DNA from: a virus
DNA: 64,000 nt
Strand: one strand, 5' to 3'
Virus record (IMG/VR): IMGVR_UViG_3300029994_000005
Span: 3,761-67,760 of that record
Part shown: in pieces, positions 27,882 to 61,301 of the stretch
Position numbering within the stretch: position 1 is the first letter of the stretch
Layout: each line of letters starts with the position of its first letter
Position numbers and translations under genes: made by a program
Notes under the pieces: generated by a model
What the model was told of the DNA's origin: nothing
Database searches by the model: none
What the model saw: only the letters and a program-made list of their open reading frames with translations

Positions 27882-27965
27882 AAAAATACAATTACTTTCA
27901 AGTTTTACCTTTGACTGTAGGCCAGAATCTATCCATAATTCACACATTATATACATTAATGGCGG

Positions 27966-32776: not shown

Positions 32777-33873
32777 GATGTCCTCGGTTTAATCTGTAAA
32801 TGATAAAAATCACCAACCGTAGAGCAATTGATTTCTAAGTCTAGCATGGCTGAACTATCTTCAAAGTCACTATATTTTTCTTTAAAATAAAACTCACTTA
32901 TGCCTGCCTGCCACAACATTCTGATACACTTAGTGCAAGGAGATAGGGTGCAATAAAGTATACAATCACCAGTCTTAACTCCTGATCGCACTGCGTTACA
33001 TAATAAGTTTGTTTCTGCGTGTATTATATAATTATATTTTTCTGGACGAGATGTGGGTAGAGAACTGTCTGGTCCACCCCTAACGAACCCATTAAAACCT
33101 TCTGCCGTAACCGCTAATGTTTTAGGGTCTATTAATAGGGCTGCAACTTTAGTATGTATGTCGTGTGACTGTGACGCTATAACTACAGCTCTATCGTGAT
33201 AGATTTTAAGTTTTTTCTCTGAGATCGGGTTATTGGTTTGGTTAAACTTGTTATTTTTAACTATTCTCTGTATTTGTTCTAAAAAATGTGTTGCAGAGTA
33301 ATCTAATTTCATAGTGTTGCAAGTAGCACAACTTGTGACACAGTTTGATGTTTGGTACCCAATAGAGTTATCCAATCTATCGATTCCATTGTATTTAACT
33401 ATTGTGTGTTTATTTTTTTGAATGTTGGCAGGGGAAGCGTCACAGTAGAAACAATTTTGAAAAATAAGCCCCTTAAACTCATCTAAGGTTAGATTAAAAT
33501 CATAATTTCTAGCCTTAGCATTGCCCTTATAATCTAGAAAAATATTATTGATAGATGTCGTTTTTAGCTGTTCGTCTGTTCGAGCATATCTATTGCCACA
33601 GTGGCCACATCCACTTGAGGTGCCATTAATTAAACTTGCAACTTTTATTGACTTAAGAACACCACATTTACACTTTACATCTACATATCGTGTTTTTTTT
33701 GATTTTAAGTTTATCTTAATGTAAGGAAGAGACATTATTGTCCATTTATTTATGACAGAATTTAAGGCAATATTCTCTGTCTTAGATGGACGTTTCATAC
33801 TCTTATTTAACCTCTGCCTACAAAGGCATTTCTCTATCTTTGATTCACACGTAGGATAGATACACCGACGCAT
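32773..33873 (-). CDS. Fusion ORF of an N-terminal Zn-ribbon plus HNH-like endonuclease domain and a C-terminal dCMP deaminase domain
   Basis: The C-terminus has HAETNLL...CTLSPCTKC (Zn-binding CDA fold, as in dCMP deaminase). The N-terminal about 200 aa has CKCG...SSGCGHCG and YNGIDRLDNSIGY...NCVTSCATCNTMK (HNH-like). It is one continuous frame with no internal stop. Confidence 0.7.
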   Translation of the reverse strand: MRRCIYPTCESKIEKCLCRQRLNKSMKRPSKTENIALNSVINKWTIMSLPYIKINLKSKKTRYVDVKCKCGVLKSIKVASLINGTSSGCGHCGNRYARTDEQLKTTSINNIFLDYKGNAKARNYDFNLTLDEFKGLIFQNCFYCDASPANIQKNKHTIVKYNGIDRLDNSIGYQTSNCVTSCATCNTMKLDYSATHFLEQIQRIVKNNKFNQTNNPISEKKLKIYHDRAVVIASQSHDIHTKVAALLIDPKTLAVTAEGFNGFVRGGPDSSLPTSRPEKYNYIIHAETNLLCNAVRSGVKTGDCILYCTLSPCTKCIRMLWQAGISEFYFKEKYSDFEDSSAMLDLEINCSTVGDFYHLQIKPRTS

Positions 33874-36386: not shown

Positions 36387-36647
36387 CTAAAACAGTGAAG
36401 TGGCTCTTAGCTGAACCAGTTCAGCTTGTTCTGCTGGAGTCAACGGCTGCATGAGCTGGCCAAGCAGTGTCGTAATTTGTGACACAGTTAGAGTACTCGT
36501 ACCAGTTGTAAGCTGCGGCATACCAAGGCCACCGATATTATTGTTGTTGCCGCCAGGAATCGGCTGATTCTGGTTCAACATATCGTTTAGATCTTTTGTA
36601 AGCTGATCTATTGGATCGTCTTTTTTATCGAATGGCCACATACTCAC
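36387..36647 (-). CDS. Hypothetical protein
   Basis: 86-aa ORF that ends in a TAG stop. Confidence 0.45.
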   Translation of the reverse strand: MSMWPFDKKDDPIDQLTKDLNDMLNQNQPIPGGNNNNIGGLGMPQLTTGTSTLTVSQITTLLGQLMQPLTPAEQAELVQLRATSLF

Positions 36648-37441
36648 ACCTCACCGAGCATCTTTTTTACCATCTCTTCGTTCTTCTCATAGATGTGTAA
36701 GCTGTGCACAGTGTGAGTGTAATGTCCTTTAGTGAGGTTAGGATACACATCTTTAAGTTCTGCAACCATCTTATCCATGAGACCGCAGAACCACGGAAGG
36801 TCGTATACAAGACCCAGAGTGAGATCGTTCGAGCGCATGACGACAGATAGATGTAACTGGTCGTTGCGGATCAAGAAGTTGCCATGCATCGTGCAAGTCT
36901 GATCCTTATTGCCGACCCACTGATGTTCTGGAAGAGAGAAACGTAGGATAGCCTGACGAGTATCTTTATCAGCAAGAAGAGACTGCTTCGCCCACTCCCA
37001 AGGAGTGCGCATAACGTTTTCTTCTACTAGGAAGTGCGCAGTTTCTCCGTTTTCGTAGACACCTTCGTGGACAACTGTTTGGCGCTCAAAATGAGATCCG
37101 CTTGACTTTTTAGACCAGATAAGATGGCCGTACGCGCTGTTAACAGTGCCGTCAGGGTTAGCGAGACTGAGCCAAAATTTTGAGGCTCGTCCGAAATCCT
37201 CTGCAGAATTCGTGCAGGAATCATATAGCTCCACTTCTTTCCGGGTGTATGAAGCAATAGTTTCGTTGCGCTTTGGATCTCGAGTAACGATAGGATCATC
37301 AGTAGGTCCCAAAACCCGGAATGAGTAGTCGAGTACTTCTCTGCAAGGTTGCCCGCGTGGCGCGCTCTTGACGTCAGGGTTGTAGTAGACATCCGCGAGG
37401 GTACCGAGATAGGCTTCCGAGACATTTTTATATACTTTCAT
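36644..37441 (-). CDS. Thymidylate-synthase-fold enzyme; divergent, and possibly a pyrimidine dNMP hydroxymethylase or methyltransferase rather than a canonical ThyA
   Basis: Motifs align by eye to Thy[15 protein letters not shown] corresponds to [50 protein letters not shown] corresponds to PCHAFFQFYV...[39 protein letters not shown] corresponds to GDTHLYSNH. Asp replaces the Asn that selects for uracil. Confidence 0.7.
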   Translation of the reverse strand: [265 protein letters not shown]

Positions 37442-37467: not shown

Positions 37468-38154
37468 CTAATACTCTTTGGTCATTAGTTCTAATTCAGC
37501 CGAGTAAATGTTTGAGCGAAGAAGCTCGACGAAGAATACACTCTGGTGTGACTCAATCTCAAAACCCTTCTTGATGTATTTAGTGAGGCGACGAATGCTA
37601 ACCCCACGTGGAACGGGATTGAAGCAGATCTTCTTCTGAGTGCAGTCTTCCATAGAGCCTGCAACTACATAAAGAACACCTAGATTGGGATCGATCGCCA
37701 TGGAGCAAGCGCGAATGTCAAAACGAGAGATAAGGTGGGCAGGCGAAGTGTGCTCTACTCCGTAGATCAAGTTTACTTTCTGTGAACCTAGATGACCGTA
37801 TGCGCACATAGGATTAGTAAAGTCAAAGTGTGCGGCATTAAGTTTAGCAAACTCCTGAGCAAGTTCTTTGGTCTGGAAGTATAGATCGATATCGTCGTAC
37901 GTGAGTATGAGTCCAGCTAGCTGTTTAGCAACGATGCTCATTACGTATGAACCAGAGATAAGTGTGCCAAACGGAAACTTAACTCCGGTGTTTATGTTTA
38001 TAGAACCTTTGCGCACTTCTACGTTAGCATCGTAGTCATCCATCAGAAGAGCGCTGCCGAGATGTGACAGTTGCTCTTTATATAGAGCTTCACCCTTTTT
38101 GATATCTTGAACAAGAGGAATAAAGAACTTAGGGTTGATTAAGAAATCGCTCAT
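37468..38154 (-). CDS. Hypothetical protein
   Basis: 228-aa ORF with a weak GS...DIDL nucleotidyltransferase-like pattern. It is not assigned. Confidence 0.5.
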   Translation of the reverse strand: MSDFLINPKFFIPLVQDIKKGEALYKEQLSHLGSALLMDDYDANVEVRKGSININTGVKFPFGTLISGSYVMSIVAKQLAGLILTYDDIDLYFQTKELAQEFAKLNAAHFDFTNPMCAYGHLGSQKVNLIYGVEHTSPAHLISRFDIRACSMAIDPNLGVLYVVAGSMEDCTQKKICFNPVPRGVSIRRLTKYIKKGFEIESHQSVFFVELLRSNIYSAELELMTKEY

Positions 38155-38685
38155 GCTTTCTCCAGATATTGAATAGCTCTGATAAGAGTGTTTATATTCT
38201 CTTTAGAGTTGCCAATCATCACGTTGCAATTGAAACATAAAAGCCCTCTCACTTTACCTGTCGTATGACAATGATCAACATGGAACCTAGAACTAAACTC
38301 TGATGCATATCTTTCACAGACTCCGCATTTGTTGTCTTGAGAATGAAGCAATAGTTCATAGGCCATGATAGCTTCTTTAGGAGATAATTCTGGCCAATAC
38401 TTAGTTAAGTGGTGACCTTTATTGTTTCTTTTTTTCTTGTACGGTATTTAAAGATTTCCAATTTGCTTTTAACTTAGAAATAAACTCTGGATTATTTTCA
38501 CGATAGTTTTTCGAAGTTTGACAAGTGCATTCGCGACATGAAGGCTCTAAACCATCTTTTGCTTTTTTCTTTTTATTAAAAAGCTTTAAAGGTTTAGGTG
38601 TTTTGCACTTTGTACAAACTTTATTTTTCACTATCATGCTCCCACAAAGTCTCCTCAATGTTCGCGTGCCACACACCGTATCCAT
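38151..38685 (-). pseudogene. Endonuclease-VII-like HNH endonuclease split into two ORFs (38419..38685 with the Zn ribbon and 38151..38366 with the HNH core) by a -1 shift at an A7 tract
   Basis: The upstream piece has CTKC...CRECTC. The downstream piece has HVDHCHTTGKVRGLLCFNCN. The two join into a full-length paralog of 13837 and 56382 if one base is slipped in GAAAAAAAG (plus 38428-38436). Confidence 0.6.
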
Positions 38686-41640: not shown

Positions 41641-42162
41641 TTAGTGAGTGGTTCCGCTACCGTCGTCTTTGCCACCCTTATGAACAGTAAACTTACCCAC
41701 GACGCTAGATTTAGAAGGCGGAGTAGGTACTGAAGGCTTAGGTGCAACAAGTACCATTTCAGCCATGAAGTCAGACAGGAACATCTCAGTGACTACGCCA
41801 GCTGGATCCATAGTGGTAATCTTAGGATCATGTCCGTCTGCAAGAATGCTTTTGAGAAGATCGCTCTTCTCTTGTTCGATCTCTTTTATCGCAGAATTAA
41901 GAGAGTTCTTGTATTTACCGTCAAGACCGTTCTTCTGCGGTTGATCCAGTTGACCGATAAGGTCTAACTGCTCATTGGTCAAATCTTTGACACGCTTCAT
42001 TCGTTTCTCGATCTCAGAGCGAGTAACTTTCTTTGGCTCAGCTGGCTTACCGCTCTTATTTTTAACTGGGCGACTGCCGATATACATGATGGCCGCAACT
42101 ACGCCAGCTGCACCAGTTAATAATCCAAGGAAATAGAAAGTTAATGCAGTCACCATAGTCAT
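41641..42162 (-). CDS. N-terminally membrane-anchored protein
   Basis: 173 aa with an N-terminal hydrophobic segment ALTFYFLGLLTGAAGVVAAIMYI. Confidence 0.5.
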   Translation of the reverse strand: MTMVTALTFYFLGLLTGAAGVVAAIMYIGSRPVKNKSGKPAEPKKVTRSEIEKRMKRVKDLTNEQLDLIGQLDQPQKNGLDGKYKNSLNSAIKEIEQEKSDLLKSILADGHDPKITTMDPAGVVTEMFLSDFMAEMVLVAPKPSVPTPPSKSSVVGKFTVHKGGKDDGSGTTH

Positions 42163-42662
42163 TTGCTTCTCCCGCGCAATTTTAGATACTTCTTATGCTT
42201 GCTGACAACTAGGTTCTTCTTCACCGGTCCCAGTTGGTCGATGTATAGTTTACCGTTGAGGTGATCGACCTCGTGTTGAACCGCTGCAGCCGTAAACCCT
42301 TTATACTCCTGCGTTTGCTCTTCAAAGTTCTCATCAAGATACTTGAGTGTGAGGACTTGAGCTCGCTCTGTATCAGAGAAGGTTCCAGGAATAGATAGGC
42401 AACCTTCTTGGAATGGAAGCATCTCACCTATCGCAGTTATCTCAGGGTTGATATAGAGTTTAGATTCATCAGTCTCTAAGTTCTTCAAGATAAAGAATCG
42501 CTTAGAGATGCCTACTTGATTTGCTGCAAGACCTGCGCCTTCAGCCTCATTCATTGTGGTGATCATTTCTGGGACTAGGGACTTAACGTAATCTAACTCT
42601 TCACGAGTAACAGGCTCTGTGACCTTGCGTAGAACAGGGTCAGTCATCATTGCTATCTTCAT
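42159..42662 (-). CDS. def: Peptide deformylase
   Basis: Motifs GAGLAANQVG, EGCLSIPG and HEVDHLNGK. The start is placed at the internal Met, which has an AGGAGG RBS 6 nt upstream. The longer ORF to 42848 is rejected. Confidence 0.85.
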   Translation of the reverse strand: MKIAMMTDPVLRKVTEPVTREELDYVKSLVPEMITTMNEAEGAGLAANQVGISKRFFILKNLETDESKLYINPEITAIGEMLPFQEGCLSIPGTFSDTERAQVLTLKYLDENFEEQTQEYKGFTAAAVQHEVDHLNGKLYIDQLGPVKKNLVVSKHKKYLKLRGRSK

Positions 42663-42897
42663 CGCAAGCCTCCTGTTTATGTTTATCATCAGGCAGGGCA
42701 GGACCATAGTAGAAGATCGGGCTTCCACCAGCAATATACTTCTCCTGAGCTCCAGGAAGATGGATCTCCATGTATCCGCGGACAATGTTAAGAACTTCAC
42801 CCCACTGTAAATCGTGGTCGCAGCACATCTCCATGATGATGTCTTCAAGGTCTAGGGTGATGTCACCCATTGGACGAAGCTTCTTTTTCTTGGGCAT
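42640..42897 (-). CDS. Hypothetical protein
   Basis: 85-aa ORF. Confidence 0.45.
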   Translation of the reverse strand: MPKKKKLRPMGDITLDLEDIIMEMCCDHDLQWGEVLNIVRGYMEIHLPGAQEKYIAGGSPIFYYGPALPDDKHKQEACDEDSNDD

Positions 42898-43537: not shown

Positions 43538-43611
43538 TGGCAAACCGCCCAGGAATCGAACCCGGTCTAAGAGGTTTGGAATCTCTTGTGCTACCGTTAC
43601 ACCAGCGGAAT
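43538..43611 (-). tRNA. tRNA-Trp (anticodon CCA), 74 nt, with an encoded CCA end
   Basis: Hand-folded cloverleaf. D arm GTGT/GCAC. Anticodon loop TTCCAAA. T arm CCGGG-TTCGATT-CCTGG. Two T:T mismatches fall in the acceptor stem. Confidence 0.5.
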
Positions 43612-43815: not shown

Positions 43816-44379
43816 TTATACTTTCTTGTATCCCGGAAGTTTCTTGCCTTTTACACGGCAGAGTTTGAGTGCCTTTTCGATGCTGGCACTAGAGAATGGA
43901 TTAGCGACGGATTTCATGTTCTTCCTGAGCATCTGTGCCCAGTAGAACTCTGCGAAAGGAATAGTAGACTTGTCGAAGCCACCCAACTCACGTACCATCC
44001 AAGCGAGTGAACGGTAAGGGTTATCAGACATACAGCGGATGTCAGCAGGCAGATCATACGGACTATGGGGACCTTTACCGAAGGCGTCATATAAGAAGAC
44101 ATACTTCATCTTCTTCATCTTTGCCCAGAATTTCTTCTTGCCCATCTTAGAGTAGTCGGCTTTTACTTCAACCACTACATGACGGTGGCCACATTCCCAC
44201 ATAGCTCTAACATAGTGATGGTGGTCGATTAGATACATCAATCCACCAGGTCCTACGATGACTGGAACTTTCTTCTCAGAGTTATGTTCTCCGCGTTTTA
44301 CCTTGGCGATCTTGTCATCAACATCTTTGAATCCTAGAGAGAACTGGGTAGGTTTTAGATCTAGAAGTAGTTTCTTCAT
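43816..44379 (-). CDS. ParB/Srx-like nuclease-domain protein
   Basis: N-terminal motif LLDLKPTQFSLG...VIVGPGG..YLIDHHH is like ParB N-terminal nuclease-domain motifs. Confidence 0.5.
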   Translation of the reverse strand: MKKLLLDLKPTQFSLGFKDVDDKIAKVKRGEHNSEKKVPVIVGPGGLMYLIDHHHYVRAMWECGHRHVVVEVKADYSKMGKKKFWAKMKKMKYVFLYDAFGKGPHSPYDLPADIRCMSDNPYRSLAWMVRELGGFDKSTIPFAEFYWAQMLRKNMKSVANPFSSASIEKALKLCRVKGKKLPGYKKV

Positions 44380-44925: not shown

Positions 44926-46353
44926 TTACACCTTTACAGGATAAGCACGAGCACGCACTTGATCCAGAGTTGATTGGTTAGTCAACACACCGTTCAAGAA
45001 GACCTGCTCAAGCAGTCCACCTTTTTCGTCAGCAGCAGATACTTGATCTGTTGTGACGTAACGACCGTTGATGAAATCAAGACGCATTCTACCCTTGTGC
45101 GATTTCTTGCCCGAGTCAGTAATAGGGTCCTTAACGATGTCGCGCTCTTCTCCATTAACTTCTACGTAAGTGGTCTTAACAGCGAAGCCTTGGTCGTCAC
45201 GGCTGTGCGATTGCAACAGCAATCCACCAACACCGATAACGAGATTAGAAGACGCAAATCCCATGCCCTTTAGACGCGCGAGGATGCACTCGTAACGGTC
45301 AAAATACATTCCGTCGCCGTAGATCAGGCCTACTTTAGGATTCAATTCTTGGAAGCCTAATGCGTTCGTTGTCGTACCGAACTGGCGAGCCAACAGACGC
45401 ATAGCACCGAGGTTCTCAGCAGAACCAGCAGGAGCAGACGGGTTTCCACAGATGATGAGCTCTGGGTCACCAGAGTCCGGGCGGAATACCACTTTGCCGT
45501 CACGAGCCATGATGCGCTTGTAAAGTACCTGAGTGAAGTTCTCAAGAACATTCCACAGGTTATAGGTATCAGACACGATAGAGACGATGCCGGTAGGGTA
45601 AGTGTTGAGCATGTGCTCAAACGCCTTCAACTCATGTTCCTGACCGTACGAACACATAACTGAGTGCTCAGATGCAGGGACAGAAGCACCGATAAGGCCA
45701 GTCGCAGCGTAGTTCTCCATCAAGAACTTAACAGCCGGAACGGTATCTGTTCCACGGAAGTTGATCAAGTGAGCAGCACCAGAGATAGCCGCAGTCTCCT
45801 CAGACGAGCAACCACGGTATCCGAAGTCATGGACAGCCCAATCGCAGTGGAGACGGTTGCCTACAGTTTCATCCGCGTATGTGTCTACAAGGTTACGCAA
45901 CTTCATAGAGTACGAACCAACAGTTGTCGGGTTCCATACTTTAAGAACGAGCGACTCAAAGAAGCCAACTGTCCAAGCGAAGTCAGGATGAGTATTGGTC
46001 ATCGTGAGAAGAACGTTCTTAACGGGCAGAACAGTTCCTTCTGGAACAGCTTTGATCTCCAAGGGGATATAACCAAGGTCTGCCAATGCGTGCATCTTTT
46101 CAAAGATGTGGCGCGGGGTAGGTCCGAGAATCGATTCACGTACCTGCAAGAACTCGTTCACCATTGGGTGAGTGATCTTCTGTGCCAAGTAGTTCTTCAA
46201 GATAGGCTGAAGCCCATTGAAGAGCGTGAACGGAATCTTCTTGTCGGAGCGAGCAACGAGATAGGCGTAGGCCTTAGTGATCCCCTCTGGGAACTGCTCC
46301 ATGTGCCCCATCTTATATACGTCAGTGCAAAGTAATACGTTATCGTTAATCAT
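44926..46353 (-). CDS. Nicotinamide phosphoribosyltransferase (NAMPT/NadV) family
   Basis: 475 aa. The N-terminus NVLLCTDVYKMGHMEQFPEG matches the NAMPT signature NILLxTDSYKxxHxxQYP. The size is typical for NadV. Confidence 0.8.
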   Translation of the reverse strand: MINDNVLLCTDVYKMGHMEQFPEGITKAYAYLVARSDKKIPFTLFNGLQPILKNYLAQKITHPMVNEFLQVRESILGPTPRHIFEKMHALADLGYIPLEIKAVPEGTVLPVKNVLLTMTNTHPDFAWTVGFFESLVLKVWNPTTVGSYSMKLRNLVDTYADETVGNRLHCDWAVHDFGYRGCSSEETAAISGAAHLINFRGTDTVPAVKFLMENYAATGLIGASVPASEHSVMCSYGQEHELKAFEHMLNTYPTGIVSIVSDTYNLWNVLENFTQVLYKRIMARDGKVVFRPDSGDPELIICGNPSAPAGSAENLGAMRLLARQFGTTTNALGFQELNPKVGLIYGDGMYFDRYECILARLKGMGFASSNLVIGVGGLLLQSHSRDDQGFAVKTTYVEVNGEERDIVKDPITDSGKKSHKGRMRLDFINGRYVTTDQVSAADEKGGLLEQVFLNGVLTNQSTLDQVRARAYPVKV

Positions 46354-46361
46354 GTTTCTCC

Positions 46362-46604
46362 TTAAAAGTTAAATGTAGCTGTTACGTAGAAGCGGACTTC
46401 GCCCTCGTCTTCTTCTACTGAGTAGTCGAACGTTGTACCATCATCAAAATGTTCTGCGAGAGCATCAACCTTAGCCTGCGCAAGAGTGTGCTCCACAGAC
46501 ATATCAACCCCTGGGATCTTCTTCACAACGTGAATTGGTTTCTTCTTCTTAGGGTCGATGGTATCGCTCACGCTTCCACCATATCTGGATCGCAGACGAT
46601 CCAA
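46362..46604 (-). CDS. Hypothetical protein
   Basis: 80-aa ORF. Confidence 0.45.
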   Translation of the reverse strand: MDRLRSRYGGSVSDTIDPKKKKPIHVVKKIPGVDMSVEHTLAQAKVDALAEHFDDGTTFDYSVEEDEGEVRFYVTATFNF

Positions 46605-47077
46605 TTGATTCTTGGATAATCTTTTAAGAGGATTTCAAGGATAAGTTCTGAGTCTTTCCAAGGTACAGCGAACAGACCAGAGTTAAACTTATTAGAGTAG
46701 ACGTCGATCTGTGGGTACGTGTCGCTTGGGTGGGCGAGATAGATCTTACGTAAGAGATCACGGAGAGCTAGAGTTGTATTGATCTTGATCTCTTCTACGC
46801 CGTCTTTCTTAGGTCCGTAGTCATGAGATGTAACGATCCAGCCGACCCAGTGAGCTTCGGATTCAGGGAACGATGATAGACCAGCAAGACCTACAGCCGT
46901 TCCACGCTGCATGTTAGCAGACTCGCAGAACATCTTGTAGTCGAGAAAGCTCTGAAGATACTTCTCTTTGAAAGGCTTGGCAATGCCAGAACCCCAGACA
47001 CCCTGCGAGTTGCAGGCATGAATGATTACACTCTCACGAGGAGCGTCAAAGAGACTCATCTTCTTGTGGGTTACCAT
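46568..47077 (-). CDS. Macro-domain protein (ADP-ribose binding or processing)
   Basis: N-terminal motif VIIHACNSQGVWGSGIAKPF resembles the macro-domain signature (NAANxxLxxGGGV). Confidence 0.7.
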   Translation of the reverse strand: MVTHKKMSLFDAPRESVIIHACNSQGVWGSGIAKPFKEKYLQSFLDYKMFCESANMQRGTAVGLAGLSSFPESEAHWVGWIVTSHDYGPKKDGVEEIKINTTLALRDLLRKIYLAHPSDTYPQIDVYSNKFNSGLFAVPWKDSELILEILLKDYPRINWIVCDPDMVEA

Positions 47078-47895
47078 ACTTTATATCCTTCCGGGTTCCT
47101 GAGCAGAGAGTTCGTGGTGTGAATATCACGGATCCCTGCATCAAATAATACCTGCTTCCCTTTTGAGAATAGTCCGTGTGAGACTGCTAGGTCGATTGGT
47201 CCTGTCTTATATTCTTTAAGTGCTTCAGCTACTTTGATGAAGGTCATCCCGCCGTCGCAGATGTCGTCGATGATTAGGACACTCTTGCCGTAGAGATCCT
47301 GGTGAGATGTATTAACTTTAAGTCCAGTGATCTCGCCCGTCTGCTGGTTGCGAACCTTCTCGCACCAGATGAACTGCTTACCAGTGGTCTTAGCGTAGCG
47401 CTCAGCTGCGCCTTTGTCTGGGTAACATACAAAGTCATAACCGATGGTGTTAAACAGAGTCTGATGAAACTCTTTGGGAGTTGTAGACTCCATTGGAAAG
47501 ACGAGATCAGACTTGGAGTGTGGGTCAAAAGCCTCGATGCGCGTGATACCTGCGTTATATAGGATCTCTGTGAATGTCTTGAGCGCGAAGCTCAACTTAT
47601 TGTTTACTTCCTTATCTTGACGAGCGTAAGGAAGATAAGGACATACAAGATCAACACTGGTATCGAAAACGTCATAGCATAACTGCGCCACTTGGCATAC
47701 TTGGATTAACTCAGCTTCATTCTCAAACAGCCATAGTATATATGTGACGCTGTTCGGATCCATCTTTGACTCATCAATCTTCCAGACCTGGGAAGTTCCA
47801 TCTGGAAAGATGGTTATCGTAAAACTTACTTCTTCGCCGTCGCTGATGAGCTTAATCATGTGTTCTCTCCCAGTAAGAAATCTAAGTGGCGCCAC
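47071..47895 (-). CDS. Ribose-phosphate pyrophosphokinase (PRPP synthetase) family
   Basis: Motifs ISDGEEVSFTI, CPYLPYARQDK and VLIIDDICDGGMTFIKVAEALKE match the Prs divalent-cation and PRPP-binding sites. Confidence 0.8.
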   Translation of the reverse strand: MAPLRFLTGREHMIKLISDGEEVSFTITIFPDGTSQVWKIDESKMDPNSVTYILWLFENEAELIQVCQVAQLCYDVFDTSVDLVCPYLPYARQDKEVNNKLSFALKTFTEILYNAGITRIEAFDPHSKSDLVFPMESTTPKEFHQTLFNTIGYDFVCYPDKGAAERYAKTTGKQFIWCEKVRNQQTGEITGLKVNTSHQDLYGKSVLIIDDICDGGMTFIKVAEALKEYKTGPIDLAVSHGLFSKGKQVLFDAGIRDIHTTNSLLRNPEGYKVW

Positions 47896-48356
47896 ATAGC
47901 ATCGTGCTCGCCGTCTTTCTTGAGCATCAGCTTGAAGTGCGGATACTCTTTCTTGTACATGTCAAGCTGTTTCGCTTGATCTAGTACAGACCGTTCTACG
48001 TTTGCTATACGGTCAGCCAGCTTCAGGGTCGTAGCCTCTCTAGAGGCTTGAATCTTAGGGTAGGTCTTTTCGTGACGCTCTTTGCGGTTCTTACCAGGCT
48101 CGTTTGTTACTCGGTGAACTAGATCTGCTACATGCCTACCGAATGTAATCTCGATCTGGAACACTGTTGCATCTGTGTCTTCGACTACATCATGCAACCA
48201 GGCTGCGACCTGAAGGTCCTCGCTATCAAACTTGAAGCGGCGCAAGACTTCAGCTACGGCAGCGAGATGCTCTGTGTAGGGAGAATTCTCCCCGTATTTC
48301 TGGTCTTTGTGCTTTGCTGCTGCAAATGCCGCTGCTGCTTGAATAGCGAGGCTCAT
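47856..48356 (-). CDS. HD-domain phosphohydrolase (RelA/SpoT-hydrolase-like)
   Basis: Motifs AAKHKDQKYGE.PYTEHLAAVAEVL and WLHDVVEDT. Confidence 0.65.
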   Translation of the reverse strand: MSLAIQAAAAFAAAKHKDQKYGENSPYTEHLAAVAEVLRRFKFDSEDLQVAAWLHDVVEDTDATVFQIEITFGRHVADLVHRVTNEPGKNRKERHEKTYPKIQASREATTLKLADRIANVERSVLDQAKQLDMYKKEYPHFKLMLKKDGEHDAMWRHLDFLLGENT

Positions 48357-48537: not shown

Positions 48538-49791
48538 TTAGTTGTCTTCAGACTTGTTTGCTGCAGCAGGCACTTTAGTGCGTGGAGCTTTAGCAGGTTG
48601 ATCTTTGTTCATGCGATCGTTCAAATCCATGAAGGACTTAAGACCGATTGCGTCGAAGGGGTTCATTGCCGATTGACCGTTAGATCCACCGCCGATTACC
48701 ATCATGCCTGGGAACTGAACACCAGCAAGCTCATGTGCTACACCGATGCGAGTCTCTTTGTCGATCGTCGCACGCTCAAGGGGAGTAAGACCTGCTTGAA
48801 CTTTGAGGCGGTTAACTTCAGCAAGAGCTTTACCGTTCGTTACTTCAGCCGCAGCATCTTGTTCAGCTTGTTTGCGTTTCAGCTGAGATACTTCGAACTC
48901 TTTCTGAGCGATAGTGACTTCTTTGATCTTCTCAACTTCTTGCTTAGCTTTCTCAATCGCGATCTGAGCATTACCTTGTTCGCGTGCAGTGATCGCATCT
49001 TGCTTAGCTTTTTCAGCGTTAGCTTTAGCGACAACTTTCATCTGCTCAGCTTCTTTTTTCTTCTGGATCAGAGCATCGATAGTCTGGTCGAAGTCGATGT
49101 CTTTGATAACGAACTGGATGATGGTTACGTTATAAGCTTTGAGCGGAGAGATCTTGCGAACAACTGGCTGTCCAGCTTTGTCAAGCTTGATGTTGACTTC
49201 ACGAGTCACGAACTCATTGCCGTCTGCATCTTTCTCTTTGAATTCCTTAGCTTCAGTCTCGTAGATCCCGTTCTTTACTTGATCTTCCACAAGTGAAGTG
49301 AACTCAGAGCGACGAGTAGAGTACGACTCTTCAGCGCGCATCAGAGTAGCCGTCTGCATCAAGGCTTCAGCAACAGTCTGACGAATCAGATCGTGCTTGA
49401 CGCGCTCGTAAGACTTGAAGTCTTTATGCAGGAGCTTCTGAGTCTCAGGGTCAGAAGGTAGACGGAATTTGATGCCGCCAGACACCTTCGCAGTACCGCC
49501 GTCGTTGAAGCGAATGTCGATCGTGTCTGACTCAGCACCTTTGCCGCCGTCAAGATCTGACTTCGAGAAGTAGTACATGTCCGACACGTGGTAAGTTGTT
49601 ACGTTACCGAAGAGCTTCAGATACGTACCTGACTCATTGTGAACAGTTACATCACCAGTAACAGCTGCCTGTTTAATCTGATAATAGCCTTGGTCATTCG
49701 TCGTGAACACTTCACGTCCGACCGTTGCCAGGATAAGAACTGCGACCAATCCGCCTACGGCGAGACCAATCAATTTAACTCGTGCGTCCAT
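48538..49791 (-). CDS. SPFH/band-7 (HflK/C or flotillin-like) membrane protein
   Basis: N-terminal TM segment LIGLAVGGLVAVLILATV. A central SPFH-like beta/alpha domain. A long Ala/Lys/Glu/Gln coiled-coil region (AKANAEKAKQDAITAREQGNAQIAIEKAKQEVEKIKE). Confidence 0.7.
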   Translation of the reverse strand: MDARVKLIGLAVGGLVAVLILATVGREVFTTNDQGYYQIKQAAVTGDVTVHNESGTYLKLFGNVTTYHVSDMYYFSKSDLDGGKGAESDTIDIRFNDGGTAKVSGGIKFRLPSDPETQKLLHKDFKSYERVKHDLIRQTVAEALMQTATLMRAEESYSTRRSEFTSLVEDQVKNGIYETEAKEFKEKDADGNEFVTREVNIKLDKAGQPVVRKISPLKAYNVTIIQFVIKDIDFDQTIDALIQKKKEAEQMKVVAKANAEKAKQDAITAREQGNAQIAIEKAKQEVEKIKEVTIAQKEFEVSQLKRKQAEQDAAAEVTNGKALAEVNRLKVQAGLTPLERATIDKETRIGVAHELAGVQFPGMMVIGGGSNGQSAMNPFDAIGLKSFMDLNDRMNKDQPAKAPRTKVPAAANKSEDN

Positions 49792-50411: not shown

Positions 50412-50489
50412 TGGTACTCGAGGTGAGACTTGAACTCACACTGTGCAGGGTTTAAGTCTGCTGCCTCTGCCAGTTGGGGTAGTCAAGCA
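50412..50489 (-). tRNA. tRNA-like element with a canonical T arm (GTGAG-TTCAAGT-CTCAC) and an encoded CCA; the acceptor pairing is unresolved
   Basis: Anticodon-like loop CTTAAAC (UAA). The 5' acceptor strand cannot be paired by hand. Confidence 0.3.
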
Positions 50490-50579: not shown

Positions 50580-50675
50580 TGGAGGAAGGTATCCGATTCG
50601 CACGGATGAAACCCAGTGTTAGTGGGTTTACCAGGGTTCAAGCCTGGCGCAATAATCTATCTCTGCCAACCTTCC
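50580..50675 (-). tRNA. tRNA-Ser (anticodon UGA), type II, with an encoded CCA
   Basis: Acceptor GGAAGGT / ACCTTCC is a perfect 7 bp. D stem GCAG/TTGC. Anticodon arm CCAGG-CTTGAAC-CCTGG. Long variable-arm hairpin ACCCA...TGGGT. T arm ATCCG-TGCGAAT-CGGAT. It is 1 nt from the HNH gene stop. Confidence 0.55.
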
Positions 50676-50676
50676 G

Positions 50677-51204
50677 TTAAAATTTATTCGACTTCTTTAA
50701 GTTCTCTTCCCTAGGTAAATGTTGTAAATTCCAGGGCACATGTAGTCCACTTACGTTATCACCCTGTAATGGGACTATATGGTCCACATGGTGCCCTTCA
50801 GGACGATCTTTATAAATCTGCTTAATGTCGTCCATATTGACCCATTTTGGAGTTTGCAACTTAATCAACTTTCTTCTCTGTGTAGCATCGATGGACTCTT
50901 TCTGTCTAAATTCTTCGTTGGTTCTGTATTTCTCTCTTCTGAAGAGTTTAGTTCTTTCTTGCTCTGCTGCTCTATATTCTTCGTTATTGTTATAACGCTT
51001 TTTCATGTTTTTTAGATTTTGAGCATTATGTCTAGCTTTAACATTCGGATCTTTTAAAGATTCAGTTTTGCGTTTGGCTGAACTCAAAATTCTCTTTTGT
51101 CTATAAACAGGATCTGAGTCATACTTCCACTTAATATAATGGTTTTGACAAAACCCTTTACCCTTATGTTTTCTCTCACAGCCTTCAATACTACACTTCT
51201 TCAT
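50677..51204 (-). CDS. HNH homing endonuclease, inserted between the two halves of the tRNA array
   Basis: HNH core GHHVDHIVP...N...[16 protein letters not shown], with an N-terminal [16 protein letters not shown] Zn ribbon. Paralogous to 1312 and 11200. Confidence 0.8.
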
Positions 51205-51645: not shown

Positions 51646-51721
51646 TGGCTGACGAGACAGGGTTCGAACCTGTGACCTAACCGTTAACAGCGGTTTGCTC
51701 TACCAACTGAGCTACACGTCA
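51646..51721 (-). tRNA. tRNA-Asn (anticodon GUU), 76 nt, with an encoded CCA
   Basis: Clean cloverleaf. D arm GCTC-AGTTGGTA-GAGC. Anticodon arm AACCG-CTGTTAA-CGGTT. T arm ACAGG-TTCGAAC-CCTGT. One T:T mismatch in the acceptor stem. Confidence 0.8.
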
Positions 51722-52066: not shown

Positions 52067-52534
52067 TCATGCCCAGCTCGGTTTCTGCCGGTTAGTCCAC
52101 TTGGGAGGACGCTTGTCGTGGTTCCACTTGTCTCGAAGAGTTAGCTTATAAGCATCGAATATACCTGTGTTTTTGTAGGTACTGCAGTTTGCAAACGGGG
52201 TAATTTGACCTGGAGGCATGAGCTTTGTACCACCACAGAGAGTGTTGAAGATGTCGTATGATTTATGTCCTTTGCCAGTACGATTATGACGTTCCTCTAC
52301 GAGATCAGACATGTAGAGAAGTGTCCATCGATAATTCTCACTAGACTCGCGAACCCACACAGCGCAAGGATGATTTACATGCGTAGACTTATAGATATCA
52401 TTTCCAGTGTATCCTTGAACACGCATCGCTGTGCTAAGCAACTGTGCGGTCTCGATAATCATCTTGTTGAGACGTAGATCGTCAAGTGCTTTTGCACATT
52501 CCATTGTGTCTTCACTTACAACAAAGATGTTCAT
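52067..52534 (-). CDS. Hypothetical protein with a weak resemblance to T4 endonuclease V (pyrimidine-dimer glycosylase)
   Basis: 155 aa. The N-terminus NIFVVSED..A..LDDLRL and the C-terminus RPPKWTNRQKP loosely parallel DenV (INLTLVSELADQHL... and ...RPTWYKYYGKA). This is a by-eye comparison only. Confidence 0.45.
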   Translation of the reverse strand: MNIFVVSEDTMECAKALDDLRLNKMIIETAQLLSTAMRVQGYTGNDIYKSTHVNHPCAVWVRESSENYRWTLLYMSDLVEERHNRTGKGHKSYDIFNTLCGGTKLMPPGQITPFANCSTYKNTGIFDAYKLTLRDKWNHDKRPPKWTNRQKPSWA

Positions 52535-52706: not shown

Positions 52707-53138
52707 TCATAACAACTTTAAGTGTTTTGTAAGAGGATCGATGACTTCGGGATAGTCAGGTCCAATAGCTACAGCAGTATATGTTGGAACACCATCGAAC
52801 TCTGTAAGTCCTGCATCTTGAATTAGAGAGCAGAGAATCCCAGCAGCTTGCGCCTTATTAAAGATGTCGCGAAGCTCTTCTTCAGAATCTACTGATACGC
52901 AGATCTTTGTGAACTTGCCGTCAAGCCACTCTTGAATGCGCTTGAAACCAAGAGTATCTGCACTTAGGAATAAGCCACCCTCATCTGCGAAATCTGTATC
53001 TGGATCACTAGGAATAGAACGCGACTCCAAAAGATTAACAATAACTGCCATTGATGCATGAGCACCTTGAGCAACCATCTTGCCCTTGCGCATGTTTAGA
53101 TCTTTACGTAAGATGATGACCTGCTTTGGTGCCGACAT
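52707..53138 (-). CDS. Peptidyl-tRNA hydrolase, PTH2 family
   Basis: Motif VIILRKDLNMRKGKMVAQGAHAS matches the PTH2 signature, and the protein ends ...TAVAIGP. The start is placed at the internal Met with an AAGGAA RBS. Confidence 0.7.
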   Translation of the reverse strand: MSAPKQVIILRKDLNMRKGKMVAQGAHASMAVIVNLLESRSIPSDPDTDFADEGGLFLSADTLGFKRIQEWLDGKFTKICVSVDSEEELRDIFNKAQAAGILCSLIQDAGLTEFDGVPTYTAVAIGPDYPEVIDPLTKHLKLL

Positions 53139-53139
53139 A

Positions 53140-53430
53140 TTATTCCTTATAGTAAGCGTTCGTCTTATCTGTGTGATCCGTGATATCAACCACATGATTG
53201 ATAGATGGATCAAAGTTCATGATGTGGTTCTTCACCAGCATGTTGAGCGTGTACTTAGCGCCAGCACAACCTCGACATCCGCCGATCATCTTTACATAAG
53301 CGATAACGAAGTAATGTTCAGCATTGTCGCCACGATTTATCTCTGTGATCTCAACACGACCACGATGTTGACCAAGTAGAGTATTTACACTCTCGTCAAG
53401 CATCGCTTGTACTTCTTGAACTGTTTTCAT
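53140..53430 (-). CDS. NifU/Nfu-like Fe-S cluster scaffold domain protein
   Basis: Motif GGCRGCAGAKYTL is like the Nfu C-terminal CxxC domain. Confidence 0.65.
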   Translation of the reverse strand: MKTVQEVQAMLDESVNTLLGQHRGRVEITEINRGDNAEHYFVIAYVKMIGGCRGCAGAKYTLNMLVKNHIMNFDPSINHVVDITDHTDKTNAYYKE

Positions 53431-56381: not shown

Positions 56382-56855
56382 CTATTCTACCGCACTATGC
56401 TTCTCAACATATTCGGCTAGGCGTCTAATAACTTCAGGATCACTTCTAAGATAACCTTCTGCCCTATTACACGCATCACACAGTAAGCCTCTAATTTTAT
56501 TAGTCTTATGGCAATGGTCAACGGCTAATTGTTTAACGGTTCCATTTTTATGAGTAGAAGTCTCTGGTCTTAAACACACAGCGCATACATAATTTTGCTT
56601 TATTAGCATTTCATTATATTGAGATAAAGAGATCCCATACAATCTCTTGAATCGAGCGTTATCTCCTTTTCTCGGATTCTGCTTATATAACTCTTTTGCT
56701 CTTACAGAATAATAGTCTTTATAGTTTTTTCTCACTCTAGCTGCAACACAGATTTTACATGAAGATTGCAGCAAATTTGAATTCTTACCTCTTTTAGAGA
56801 ATTCGTTGTTTGGTTTGCTTAACTTGCATTTATTACAAATTTTATGGCCAAGCAT
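56382..56855 (-). CDS. Endonuclease-VII-like HNH endonuclease
   Basis: Core motif AVDHCHKTNKIRGLLCDACN, with an N-terminal CNKC...CKIC Zn ribbon. Confidence 0.75.
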   Translation of the reverse strand: MLGHKICNKCKLSKPNNEFSKRGKNSNLLQSSCKICVAARVRKNYKDYYSVRAKELYKQNPRKGDNARFKRLYGISLSQYNEMLIKQNYVCAVCLRPETSTHKNGTVKQLAVDHCHKTNKIRGLLCDACNRAEGYLRSDPEVIRRLAEYVEKHSAVE

Positions 56856-57549
56856 AAATAACTTCTTTTGTATCTAAATTGACAGCACAAAGTGGCGCCT
56901 TAGGTGAGCATCCGCATCCTGAGTCCAAATAGTAATGATGATCGTAGAATCTAGGTGCCATAATGCCTTTACGTAGTTGGTGTATGTGTCCTGATACACC
57001 TATGATTCCGTTGCCATGGTTGCGTGCAACACCTTTTTCATCTGAGTGATAGGTCCACATAAGTTCATCTGGGCTAAATTCTGGCTGACCTCTATCTAAG
57101 ATGTTGCGAGCCCACTCAGCTGGTGCTGGTGCATGACTTATAAAGTAGTTTCGCTCTTCATGTTTTAGTGGGAGCTTAGAGAGCCACACTACATGGTCGT
57201 TGATCATGTCGCTGTAGCCCATGTACTGATAAGACTCGATAGTCTGAATCCCACCATTCCTAAACCACAGGTCAGTATCGCTAGCATTCTTACCTCTAGC
57301 ATAGTACATGATGGCGATCCACTCGTGGTTGCCCGCCAAGCAGATAACGTTGTTTGGATGTGTCTCTTGTAAGTCTTTAAGGAAAGCTACAACTCCATAA
57401 GACTCAGGTCCTCGGTCAACATAGTCACCAGTGAAGATGACCTTATCCGATGTGAGGTCTAATGCGTGGTTAGTAAGAAGATCGTTCCAGAGTTTCTTCA
57501 GGAGATCTAGGCGTCCATGGATGTCTGCAATAGCGAATAGTCTATTCAT
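56842..57549 (-). CDS. Calcineurin-like metallophosphoesterase (Ser/Thr protein phosphatase or ApaH-like)
   Basis: Motifs AIADIHG, GDYVDRG and GNHE. Confidence 0.75.
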   Translation of the reverse strand: MNRLFAIADIHGRLDLLKKLWNDLLTNHALDLTSDKVIFTGDYVDRGPESYGVVAFLKDLQETHPNNVICLAGNHEWIAIMYYARGKNASDTDLWFRNGGIQTIESYQYMGYSDMINDHVVWLSKLPLKHEERNYFISHAPAPAEWARNILDRGQPEFSPDELMWTYHSDEKGVARNHGNGIIGVSGHIHQLRKGIMAPRFYDHHYYLDSGCGCSPKAPLCAVNLDTKEVIYAWP

Positions 57550-59794: not shown

Positions 59795-61186
59795 TTATTT
59801 TCTATGGCTTGTACTACCATCAGGACATTTTACTGTGTCACCCAAATTTTTCATTGGGTGGTCTTCTGTTCCGCCCTTAGAGATAATCCATAGTATTTGA
59901 GGAGGATTTTGACCTGGTCTAAGCCATGACTCCCAGTCAACCTTACTGTAACATCCATCGGTAATAAAAATATTAAGATCACCTTTGCGCTTAAATACAT
60001 CCTCAAGCGACTTAGTGAGATCTGTACCACCAGACTGAATCATAGATTTGTCAATCTTCGTGCCCATCTTGTACTGCTGACGTCCGTAGAGATCAGTGTG
60101 GAAGAACGAGAGGTTACACTTTCGTGCGCCAACCTTCAAGAACTGATCCACGATCTCAAGGAATTCATTCAACTCCTCAGTGCTGATAGAACCAGACGTA
60201 TCGAGGTGAAGCTCAAGCTTAGGCAGATCGCCTACTTTAGTGCCTGGAGCTTTGAAGCCCAGACGCTTGTTCTTGCGCATCCACGTGCCTTTGCGGTTGT
60301 GACCGTTGGCGTGTTTCTTCATCGCCATCAAGATCAACGCTTTGTAGTTCAACTCAGCACGGCGAGTCTTGATGTCCTCAAGAAGATCTTTGACGTGACC
60401 AGGGAGATCGTCGTATGACAGACGAGCTTTAACCATTGCACGTTTTACGAGCTCTTCAGTAGCATCGAGCATCTCTTTTTCGTCGCCAGCGCCATCCCAC
60501 ATGTGTTCGTCGATCGTCTGTGGAAGGTCACCAGTCTCAGCTCCGCCACCAGCATTGCCCTGACCTTCGCCATCGCCATCGCCATCTTCTGGATCTTCAA
60601 AGCGCTTGATCAATTTCTCGTAGTAATGTTCCATGGTCTGAACAGTCTGCCAAGGAGTCTTGGTGCCAGTCTTTTCATCTACGTCATGGTAATGAGCTAC
60701 ATCGATACACTGGCCTGGGCAAAGCTCATTGGGGCAAGGCTGACCGTCTTTAGTACACTGTGGGCAACCAGCAGGAAGATCCTTAATGAATTGATTGATC
60801 GCCATATCAGCTGCGATGTTCATGAGCATGCGCTTACGAGCGCTGATCTTCATGAACGGAACGCGCAATGGATGCTTATGTGTGATGTGAGAAAGTTCAT
60901 GAATAAACACGGCTTTACGCTGAGCTGCGTTCAATTTCTTACAGAAGAAGTACGGATTTACCAACATATCCCAGCGCTTAGCATCTGTATTGAACATGAT
61001 ACCGGCTGTAGGAAGTTGGTGGGAATAGGAGATTGTCAAGCACTGCAGAACCGATCCTAAGAACGGGTGCGTTTTTGAAGTCTCATAGATGGTAGTGGCC
61101 AAGCATTGGGATTTCTCCTCAACTGGCACGAACTCTTTGTCCATCTGCTTTTTAATCTCTTTAGGATCTCTAATTCTTGATGACAT
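59795..61186 (-). CDS. vWA-domain protein with an N-terminal HExxH metallopeptidase-like (DUF2201-type) domain
   Basis: N-terminal FIHELSHITHKH (HExxH). The C-terminal vWA MIDAS motif LHLDTSGSIS...FFHTD. It is adjacent to the MoxR ATPase. Confidence 0.7.
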   Translation of the reverse strand: MSSRIRDPKEIKKQMDKEFVPVEEKSQCLATTIYETSKTHPFLGSVLQCLTISYSHQLPTAGIMFNTDAKRWDMLVNPYFFCKKLNAAQRKAVFIHELSHITHKHPLRVPFMKISARKRMLMNIAADMAINQFIKDLPAGCPQCTKDGQPCPNELCPGQCIDVAHYHDVDEKTGTKTPWQTVQTMEHYYEKLIKRFEDPEDGDGDGEGQGNAGGGAETGDLPQTIDEHMWDGAGDEKEMLDATEELVKRAMVKARLSYDDLPGHVKDLLEDIKTRRAELNYKALILMAMKKHANGHNRKGTWMRKNKRLGFKAPGTKVGDLPKLELHLDTSGSISTEELNEFLEIVDQFLKVGARKCNLSFFHTDLYGRQQYKMGTKIDKSMIQSGGTDLTKSLEDVFKRKGDLNIFITDGCYSKVDWESWLRPGQNPPQILWIISKGGTEDHPMKNLGDTVKCPDGSTSHRK

Positions 61187-61301
61187 ATAATTGTCTCCCT
61201 CGTTACACTACTATTGTATCAGCACGAGTCGCCCCCGGTTAAAGAAAAGGAACCAACCTGGGTGCTAGGGAGGAGTCACACCCAGGTTGGTATAGTCGCT
61301 A

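Follow-up and report, generated by a model that had tools for sequence, protein, structure and literature searches.

NAD+ depletion is among the commonest bacterial anti-phage strategies, and the NAD+ reconstitution pathways NARP1 and NARP1-AP are known phage answers to it. The present analysis concerns a block of four adjacent minus-strand genes, a candidate for such a pathway, in a 64,000-nucleotide stretch of viral DNA (IMG/VR record IMGVR_UViG_3300029994_000005, positions 3,761 to 67,760), hereafter called the window. Starting from the first gene of the block, the products are an HD-domain protein, a homologue of ribose-phosphate pyrophosphokinase (Prs), a macro-domain protein, and a transferase of the nicotinamide phosphoribosyltransferase (NAMPT) family (Table 1). 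A preliminary description had named these four genes correctly: the open reading frames (ORFs) lie where it placed them, contain the peptides that it quoted, and give the corresponding Pfam matches. Its view of the block as a module concerned with NAD+ and ADP-ribose (ADPR) likewise holds.

The window is phage DNA. Among its genes are a portal gene and a fragment of a terminase, together with genes for fibre-like proteins and four tRNAs and many ORFs resembling homing endonucleases. Over 10.8 kb it matches a 175,284-bp JGI metagenome contig (IMG 3300029915, Ga0311358_10000057) with 99.99% identity and therefore covers roughly one third of a ~175-kb genome; the identical macro protein is present on 21 metagenome contigs of up to 177 kb. 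The block found no match by megablast among 50,697 deposited phage records.

The genes of the block overlap or abut one another and are most likely packed as a single operon. The HD stop codon overlaps the Prs-like ATG (ATGA), and the Prs-like stop and the macro start likewise overlap (ATGGTAA), which indicates translational coupling of these three genes; alignment with homologues favours the ATG at 47859 over the listed GTG at 47895 as the Prs-like start. At the other end of the block, the ORF downstream of the transferase gene begins 1 nt past the transferase stop. The Prs-like and NAMPT-like genes stand two genes apart, and the 214-nt gap separating the macro and NAMPT-like genes is occupied by a small ORF, after which a strong ribosome-binding site (AAGGAG) lies 6 nt ahead of the transferase ATG. 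The small ORF matched nothing in Pfam or PHROG and gave no tblastn match in related loci, where the same site holds a 40-aa ORF or no gap at all. An 80-aa product was accordingly rejected as a conserved member of the module, and the significance of this unconserved ORF is doubtful. Terminator-like sites were not found on the minus strand within the block, in a promoter and terminator scan that performed at chance level and was used only for the absence of internal terminators.

In NARP1, which is carried by 4.3% of phages, the enzyme Adps converts ADPR to ADPR-pyrophosphate (hereafter ADPR-PP), and the enzyme Namat joins nicotinamide to the product to give NAD+ (Osterman et al. 2024). Adps was defined operationally in that study as a Prs-like clade apart from true Prs, with its gene beside a Namat homologue in 97% of the clade. 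Purified SPbetaL1 Adps forms ADPR-PP from ADPR and gave no product in a Prs-activity assay (described with ribose-5-phosphate in the figure legend and with phosphoribosyl pyrophosphate, PRPP, in the text). The Prs-like protein of the window belongs to this group. It falls into one clade with all Nampt- or Namat-partnered Prs-like proteins at a bootstrap of 0.973 (all trees here are neighbour-joining on Kimura distances), in a tree of 300 replicates whose outgroup comprised the E. coli class I Prs and 13 diverse archaeal class III Prs. In none of the 300 replicates did the window group join true Prs, and the same grouping received a bootstrap of 0.80 with only two outgroups. The clade includes the lineages of verified Adps, namely SPbetaL1, Cody (a relative of Vibrio phage Gary), and LeBron, which is DyoEdafos-like.

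Other features of the Prs-like protein point the same way. Its substrate loop reads DDICDGGMTF, to be compared with DDI(C/S/A)DGGx(T/S)F as the consensus of the partnered clade and with DD(M/I)(I/V)(D/S)TGGT as the ribose-5-phosphate loop of 14 true Prs. Against the TIGR01251 model (cut-off 113 bits) it scores 107.4 bits, close to the verified Adps of SPbetaL1 (106.0) and of Cody (98.5); it is under the cut-off of every NCBIfam Prs model and far from any Prs equivalog cut-off. The catalytic lysine corresponding to K162 of SPbetaL1, which was mutated to inactivate that Adps, is kept. A housekeeping Prs identity was rejected on the tree, the loop signature, and the sub-threshold model scores together, and the protein is predicted to be an Adps-type pyrophosphokinase converting ADPR to ADPR-PP.

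The transferase finds its best solved structure in SPbetaL1 Namat (355 bits, 41% identity). The closest deposited phage protein is 42% identical and KVP40 NadV 30% identical, and 120 metagenomic homologues were found at 58-91% identity. Relative to the Namat reference residues (F189, D215, R306, D308, and the catalytic histidine), the catalytic core is fully kept, comprising D11, Y13, F177, R180, D203, A227, R291, D293, G346, D347, and the EHS histidine, and a GDPxAxxGS segment is common to the window transferase and Namats. In a tree of 62 taxa, three clades were recovered: a Namat clade holding SPbetaL1, Cody, PS17B-2, LeBron, Peregrin, and Acinetobacter (98%), a classical Nampt clade holding KVP40 and Mx1 (99.5%), and a clade containing the window protein, here called W (80.5%). 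Orthology with KVP40-type NadV was rejected, as the transferase lies outside the KVP40/Mx1 clade at 0.995. W grouped as sister to Namat in 58.5% of replicates and with classical Nampt in 22%, and the protein is placed in an uncharacterised third clade that is only weakly sister to Namat. It is predicted to join nicotinamide either to ADPR-PP, yielding NAD+, or to PRPP, yielding nicotinamide mononucleotide (NMN).

A macro-domain protein as a third component of such operons is documented. NARP1-AP, published in January 2026, has the order Adps-Adpp-Namat, and a macro-domain gene is found in 15% of NARP1 operons (Osterman et al., bioRxiv 10.64898/2026.01.28.702374). According to that study, RES-domain aRES NADases produce ADPR-1''-phosphate, from which Adpp of Vibrio phage Gary removes the phosphate; the nearest characterised homologue of Adpp is yeast Poa1p, all three Gary genes are required, and NARP1-AP overcomes both aRES and Nezha. 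The macro families counted for NARP1-AP are PF01661, PF14519, or PF20016, and the window has a PF01661 gene within two genes of the NARP1 genes, sitting between both enzymes. As a single sequence, the window protein finds its best solved structure in Poa1p (6LFT/6LFQ, E=8e-10), with which it has the motifs HxCNxxGxWGxGIA and NSG(L/I)FxVPW in common. A profile of its 58-sequence family matches Poa1p over nearly the full length (E=7e-24, 88 bits), and an identical protein is annotated at JGI as 'ADP-ribose 1''-phosphate phosphatase'. The protein is thus a member of the Poa1p family and is predicted to be an ADPR-1''-phosphate phosphatase, a functional analogue of Adpp. Poa1p itself (PDB 6LFQ/6LFT) is a eukaryotic enzyme acting on a tRNA-splicing by-product.

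Comparison with related loci demonstrates that the kinase and the transferase travel together. The Prs-like/NAMPT-family pair is present in every related phage contig examined, and 32 of 35 related bacterial loci (L018-L052) have the Prs-like gene ahead of the transferase gene; these 35 loci come from Pedobacter, Mucilaginibacter, Chitinophagales, Saccharibacteria, Bdellovibrionales, Planctomycetota, and Sericytochromatia. Fusions of the two in single proteins also occur, in both orders (representatives P0246 and P0259, and P0247, P0248, and P0252, include fusions and insertions). Taken together, these bacterial loci, phage contigs, and fusions show that the linkage is not due to chance. Other W-clade transferases contain insertions of ~300 aa, without a Pfam match, that split the NAPRTase domain and are possibly inteins or homing elements.

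The W-clade phage modules vary in their additional genes. The arrangements seen are Macro-Prs-Nampt, HD-Prs-Macro-Nampt, Prs-Macro-Nampt, and HD-NADAR-Prs-Macro-Nampt, the last flanked, as in the window, by SPFH and ParB-like genes, and further Prs-Nampt with a nearby isochorismatase, Prs-x-Nampt, and Prs-Nuc_deoxyri_tr2-Nampt-NADAR. The macro gene adjoins the pair in five of eight related phage contexts. NADAR genes lie beside W-type pairs in two phage lineages and on Pedobacter chromosomes (the P0005 contig; L017, 11415-11882; L027 and L028, ~5543-6017), following the transferase gene in some Pedobacter, and in L017 a Nuc_deoxyri_tr2 gene lies between both enzymes. The accessory genes that recur in independent lineages, namely Poa1p-like macro, NADAR, and Nuc_deoxyri_tr2, all handle ADPR-type compounds, which would make sense if ADPR were the input of the pathway.

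Among cellular proteins, the nearest relatives of the window transferase (46-62% identity) are encoded in nrtR-prs-like-nadV operons, with an NrtR regulator in 25 of the 35 bacterial loci, and all of these relatives combine the clamp-less transferase signature described below with an Adps-type loop in the partner. Early work on this regulon found that NrtR leaves prs-nadV operators most effectively with ADPR and declared the purpose of a private 'Prs' in nrtR-prs-nadV operons unexplained (Rodionov et al. 2008, PMC2330246). Unlike the phage block, these bacterial operons are chromosomal and regulated and have no macro gene.

On balance, it is somewhat probable that the block is a functional, co-transcribed, NARP1-AP-like NAD+ reconstitution operon of a ~175-kb uncultured phage. 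The enzymatic steps and the anti-defence role that we infer would begin with a host defence that cleaves NAD+ into nicotinamide and either ADPR (SIR2, TIR, and similar effectors) or ADPR-1''-phosphate (RES-type aRES). The Poa1p-like macro protein would strip the 1''-phosphate to leave ADPR, the Adps-like pyrophosphokinase would use ATP to convert ADPR to ADPR-PP, and the Nampt-family transferase would swap the pyrophosphate for nicotinamide, forming NAD+ directly. The route from ADPR through ADPR-PP to NAD+ is supported by the Adps-type character of the kinase in clade, loop, and sub-threshold Prs score and by its adjacency to a Nampt-family gene. It gains further support because the bacterial operon is ADPR-induced, because no NMN adenylyltransferase (NMNAT) or Nudix gene accompanies the pair in the window or in ~18 kb of its flanks, and because the KVP40 Nampt, itself clamp-less, still forms NAD+ from ADPR-PP in vitro.

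Several observations weigh against this reading, and many of them concern the transferase. Namat is defined by an adenine 'selectivity clamp', consisting of helix aromatics that stack on adenine and the loop residue R40, and when the clamp of SPbetaL1 Namat is doubly mutated, its ADPR-PP-driven activity falls by up to 16.6-fold (Lan et al. NAR 2026; PDB 9W5W/9W5X). The clamp helix reads GSFTYQYNTRD in SPbetaL1 Namat and GGLLLQSHSRD in the window transferase, which does not fit the Namat motif GSX(T/S)X(Q/N)X(N/V)TRD; the two adenine-stacking positions (motif positions 3 and 7) are L378 and S382. At the seven discriminating positions (S190, A/S362, S391, F/Y392, T393, Y394, and Y396 in SPbetaL1 Namat numbering), the window protein has G178, G348, G377, L378, L379, L380, and S382, hence glycine for Ser/Ala at 190, 362, and 391. 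None of the seven is a Namat residue and none is aromatic; six have the state of the KVP40/Mx1 Nampts, and L378 is specific to the clade. An 8-aa insertion present in all examined Namat-type sequences is missing, and the selectivity loop is 2 aa shorter than that of Namat. Within this loop, which in Namat supplies a stacking residue of the Arg/Lys/Tyr kind, K38 aligns with R40, and the residue after it is a lysine and not aromatic. Finally, the protein lies outside the clade of every verified Namat at a bootstrap of 0.98. Having failed the published signature and fallen outside the verified clade, the transferase cannot be called a Namat; of the clade assignments that the preliminary description raised, the one to Adps was confirmed for the kinase, while the transferase proved to belong with neither Namat nor KVP40-type NadV.

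The same clamp-less state extends to the relatives of the window transferase. Its closest homologues show this type at the clamp, the ~20 cluster representatives nearest to it are without exception of the Nampt type or of a GGI-LR variant, and the best 150 cluster representatives from 1.8 billion proteins comprise 80 of Namat type, 42 of Nampt type, and 28 others. The checked deposited phages with a Prs-like partner (SPbetaL1, Cody, PS17B-2, LeBron, Peregrin, cr126_1, Phass-1, and Lak-B8) are all Namat-type, so that the W type appears to be unsampled in published surveys. With 72% identity to SPbetaL1 Namat, the verified chromosomal NARP1 of Paenibacillus foliorum (Lan et al. 2026) is also of the clamp type. 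In a separate observation, the record of Acinetobacter phage MD-2021a (CAKLQF020000015.1) looks like a bacterial chromosome fragment, with fepC, an AraC regulator, and prsA_2-nadV-NrtR-like genes, and its NadV carries the Namat-type clamp motif GSFTYNYLTRD.

These properties of the transferase are what would be expected if the block served ordinary PRPP-dependent nicotinamide salvage, an alternative that we regard as rather unlikely. The Prs-like protein would then make PRPP and the Nampt-type transferase NMN, in the manner of NARP2 without its own NMNAT, and NMN would be converted to NAD+ by host NadR, NadM, or NadD, by an NMNAT encoded in the other ~90 kb of the genome, or by a PPAT-like transferase; the macro protein, with a host Nudix enzyme, would recycle ADPR-1''-phosphate and ADPR to ribose-5-phosphate or act independently. 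The KVP40 Nampt, which has the same pocket-entrance signature, prefers PRPP; the nrtR-prs-nadV operons have historically been read as a dedicated PRPP supply; and the nearest deposited-phage homologue of the macro protein, in Myxococcus phage Mx1, accompanies a Nampt and a NadM-like NMNAT in a NARP2-like setting. On the other hand, the salvage scheme requires the Prs-like protein to make PRPP although it is nested in a clade whose verified members form ADPR-PP from ADPR, and a private PRPP synthetase would bring no obvious benefit, nor would it account for the recurrence of ADPR-handling neighbours. The exclusion of the transferase from the classical Nampt clade tells in the same direction, since 94% of the phages in the KVP40 Nampt clade carry Nmnat. 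If the NAD+ reconstitution reading is retained, the clamp-less pocket entrance would represent a retained ancestral state, and the preference for ADPR-PP over PRPP would be expected to be weaker or to be achieved otherwise.

The presence or absence of an NMNAT bears directly on this choice. As the preliminary description had remarked, none is visible in the window: the scanned ORFs, which were nearly all of those of at least 50 aa (a few repetitive structural and short doubtful ORFs being left out), gave no Pfam match to CTP_transf_like or NUDIX, and ~18 kb of flanking sequence gave none either, so that ~82 kb of the ~175-kb genome was covered. The remaining ~90 kb could encode an NMNAT, which counts against the reconstitution reading. 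So does a 140-aa PPAT-like nucleotidyltransferase with a HIGH motif encoded 9 kb past the right end of the window, a point in favour of salvage; its gene forms a pair with a DUF3307 gene (L055, 97-947, ~8.7-9.5 kb past that end). A pair of a DUF3307 membrane-like gene and a PPAT-like gene is also found in an unrelated W-clade phage contig (L017, 357-1249). The PPAT-like protein was nevertheless rejected as a recognisable NMNAT, because it scores 100.9 bits with the CoaD model (cut-off 103.3) and at most 29 bits with NMNAT models (cut-offs 112-341); its best solved structures are all PPAT. Three Pedobacter loci (L029, L030, and L033) also have PPAT-like matches, at a distance of ~2 kb from nadV. 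No phage has been found to carry both NARP1 and NARP2.

The macro protein supplies further points against the NARP1-AP-like reading. It is only 13% identical to the Adpp of Cody, the relative of Gary whose sequence was used in place of Gary's own, and hhalign gave a probability of 2.9% for the two, aligning only the H-x-C-N...G-x-GIA motif. The window protein was accordingly rejected as an orthologue of Gary-type Adpp, and a second macro subfamily would thus have been recruited to the same operon position.

The HD protein is a MESH1-like small alarmone hydrolase (SAH) of the RelA/SpoT hydrolase-domain family, by its sequence. It matches the NCBIfam spoT_relA hydrolase region (70.8 bits), among solved structures it is closest to human HDDC3/MESH1 (3nr1, 55 bits, E=1e-13), followed by Drosophila Mesh1, bacterial SAHs, and a (p)ppApp hydrolase, and the HD, EDT, and KLADR motifs are all present; its size likewise corresponds to that of MESH1 and SAHs. 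In the two closest relatives, whose transferases are 81% and 73% identical to that of the window and which share overall synteny with it, the gene immediately upstream of the module is an HD_4 gene; five more distant phage relatives have none at the module. The overlap of the HD gene with the Adps-like gene (ATGA) speaks for co-expression of the two. The case for the HD protein as a possible member of the module consists of this translational coupling and of the synteny in two close relatives. A general association of HD or SAH genes with NARP1 was rejected, as loose proximity was seen only in Pseudomonas phage phiPsa315, where a SAH-Nudix pair lies five genes upstream of Adps, and not in the other loci. 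The literature searched contained no link between NARP1 and SAHs or NADAR, nor an operon context that joins a SAH gene to NAD+ reconstitution genes.

As for its function, the HD protein may hydrolyse alarmones and so act as an independent counter to toxSAS toxins or to the stringent response. More speculatively, it could be a phosphatase for 2'/3'-phosphorylated adenosine-ribose compounds with a feeder or clean-up role, which would bring NADP-derived compounds into the pathway; this idea is drawn by analogy with MESH1 and its NADPH and CoA phosphatase activities.

The HD protein would likewise act independently if the block merely assembled functionally separate auxiliary or anti-defence genes in an early cluster, with cooperation confined to the Prs-like/transferase pair. 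The macro protein would then reverse DarT-type ADP-ribosylation of DNA or protein, or degrade ADPR-based signals, and the HD protein would hydrolyse (p)ppGpp or (p)ppApp against toxSAS toxins or the stringent response. Such a collection would be compatible with the textbook SAH fold of the HD protein, with the lack of the HD gene in five of seven related phage contexts and the distance between SAH and Adps in phiPsa315, with a weak match of the macro protein to the DarG macrodomain model, and with the absence of the macro gene from three related phage modules and all 35 bacterial loci. We nonetheless consider it improbable. Poa1p is by far the best match of the macro family (DarG-like macrodomains reach 41 bits and TARG1 25 bits, against 88), the linkage of the macro gene to the pair holds in two gene orders across 54-72% diverged copies, the published NARP1-AP macro protein is required together with Adps and Namat, and the HD, Prs-like, and macro genes overlap.

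Set beside known systems, the architecture of the block is that of NARP1-AP and not new. The preliminary description had considered the three-way combination of kinase, macro domain, and transferase unusual, a judgement overtaken by its experimental demonstration in Vibrio phage Gary. As in Gary, a Prs-fold kinase of the one Prs-like clade, a Poa1p-related macro protein, and a Nampt-family transferase are encoded in the same order on one strand, an order also seen in Cody (Adps-macro-Namat), and the predicted route from ADPR-1''-phosphate through ADPR and ADPR-PP to NAD+ is the same. The window differs from Gary in its macro protein, which belongs to another subfamily much closer to Poa1p itself, in its clamp-less transferase from another clade, and in the additional upstream SAH gene and small ORF. 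The NARP1 systems of Bas63, SPbetaL1, FADO, and DyoEdafos resemble it in having adjacent Adps-clade and Nampt-family genes with the catalytic core kept. The NARP2 system of KVP40 (NadV and NatV) has the clamp-less pocket-entrance signature (G, G, G, xLLQ) in common with it but differs in the low identity and clade exclusion of the transferase, in the Adps-clade partner, which is absent from NARP2 phages, and in Nmnat, which was not found in the scanned part of the window phage. RyDEP, another accessory enzyme of NARP1, converts cADPR signals to ADPR by linearising them. The NAD+ reconstitution interpretation of the preliminary description is thus partly upheld: the placing of the Prs homologue with Adps and the suggestion of ADPR-1''-phosphate being fed in by the macro domain agree with the present data and with the published NARP1-AP mechanism, and the Namat identity and the claim of unusualness fall away. 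We propose that the locus be called NARP1-AP-like, and not a member of NARP1-AP, pending the specificities of both enzymes.

A broader reading, which is possible though we hold it only tentatively, is that the W enzymes represent a third, clamp-less class of the Nampt family that is partnered with Adps and makes NAD+ from ADPR-PP as an ancestral form of NARP1. The nrtR-prs-nadV operons would then be devices for recycling ADPR to NAD+, to which phages add interchangeable feeders, including the Poa1p-like macro protein, NADAR, the deoxyribosyltransferase-like protein, and possibly the MESH1-like HD protein (for 2'/3'-phosphorylated ADPR or NADP). If this is true, the operons in Bacteroidota and other phyla are not the PRPP/NMN salvage operons that they have been annotated as since 2008. 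The coupling of a MESH1-like hydrolase and the recurrent NADAR neighbours suggest further feeder activities.

The same operon logic is found in a large lineage missing from the searched deposited phages, comprising ~175-kb phages together with many Bacteroidota, Saccharibacteria, and Planctomycetota chromosomes, and the transferase of the window lineage is without the structural feature that, in current proposals, defines ADPR-PP specificity. Should W enzymes use ADPR-PP, the selectivity clamp would be dispensable, and signature-based annotation would miss a whole branch of NAD+ reconstitution; should they use PRPP, the Adps clade would not be uniformly ADPR-specific, and operon-based counts of NARP1 would be inflated. 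Either outcome would refine the calling of anti-defence genes in viromes.

Table 1. Coordinates of the four-gene block and of other features in the 64-kb window
Feature	Position	Strand	Length	Matches and remarks
NAMPT-like transferase gene	44926-46353	minus	475 aa	Pfam NAPRTase 145.9 bits, NAMPT_N 48.9 bits; PHROG 448, E=1.6e-155
Small ORF	46362-46604	minus	80 aa from TTG, or 46 aa from ATG 46502	
Macro-domain gene	46568-47077	minus	169 aa	PF01661 26.3 bits, cut-off 22
Prs-like (Adps-like) gene	47071-47859	minus	262 aa	Pribosyltran 32.4 bits; PHROG 619, E=2e-58
HD gene	47856-48356	minus	166 aa	First of block; HD_4 53.6 bits, cut-off 27.2
SPFH/Band-7 gene	48538-49791	minus		
ParB-like nuclease gene	43816-44379	minus		ParBc_2
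Peptide deformylase gene	42159-42848	minus		
Peptidyl-tRNA hydrolase gene	52707-53213	minus		PTH2-type
tRNA-Trp (CCA)	43538-43611	minus		
tRNA-Leu (TAA)	50412-50488	minus		
tRNA-Ser (TGA)	50580-50675	minus		
tRNA-Asn (GTT)	51646-51721	minus		
Endonuclease VII ORF	13837-14232	plus		PF02945
Endonuclease VII ORF	14773-15219	minus		PF02945
Endonuclease VII ORF	38151-38366	minus		PF02945
Endonuclease VII ORF	56382-56855	minus		PF02945
HNH-like ORF	1312-1902	plus		Paralogous
HNH-like ORF	11200-11766	plus		Paralogous
HNH-like ORF	50677-51204	minus		Paralogous
GIY-YIG ORF	6099-6620	plus		
Metabolism, repair, and other genes	12213-13010	plus		
Metabolism, repair, and other genes	32360-32776; 32773-33873; 36644-37441; 52067-52534; 56842-57549; 59795-62441	minus		
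Terminase ORF	41-1288			
Fibre region	22858-28862	plus		1094-aa repeat-rich fibre-like ORF, then three tandem paralogues
Glycine-rich paralogue	26146-27009	plus		
Glycine-rich paralogue	26997-27881	plus		
Glycine-rich paralogue	27966-28862	plus		

Directly upstream of the HD gene lies a gene for an SPFH/Band-7 protein. In the crAss-like phage cr126_1 (locus L058, 5918-6709), an SPFH gene likewise stands two genes away from Adps, possibly by coincidence. The four tRNA genes flank the module on the same strand, and the early region also encodes a peptide deformylase, a peptidyl-tRNA hydrolase, and a ParB-like nuclease. The metabolism, repair, and other genes of the window include, for nucleotide metabolism, a thymidylate kinase, a dCMP deaminase with a long N-terminal extension, and a divergent ThyA-like protein, and otherwise a UDG-like protein, a Pyr_excise glycosylase, a calcineurin-like phosphoesterase, and a DUF2201 metallopeptidase/VWA protein adjoining a P-loop protein.

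The load of homing-endonuclease-like ORFs is unusually high and spread over the structural and early regions, with four Endonuclease VII, three HNH-like, and one GIY-YIG representative. The terminase gene extends upstream of the window start and is longer than the ORF in the window. Finally, in the fibre region the local GC content rises to 0.51 and the GC skew to +0.28.

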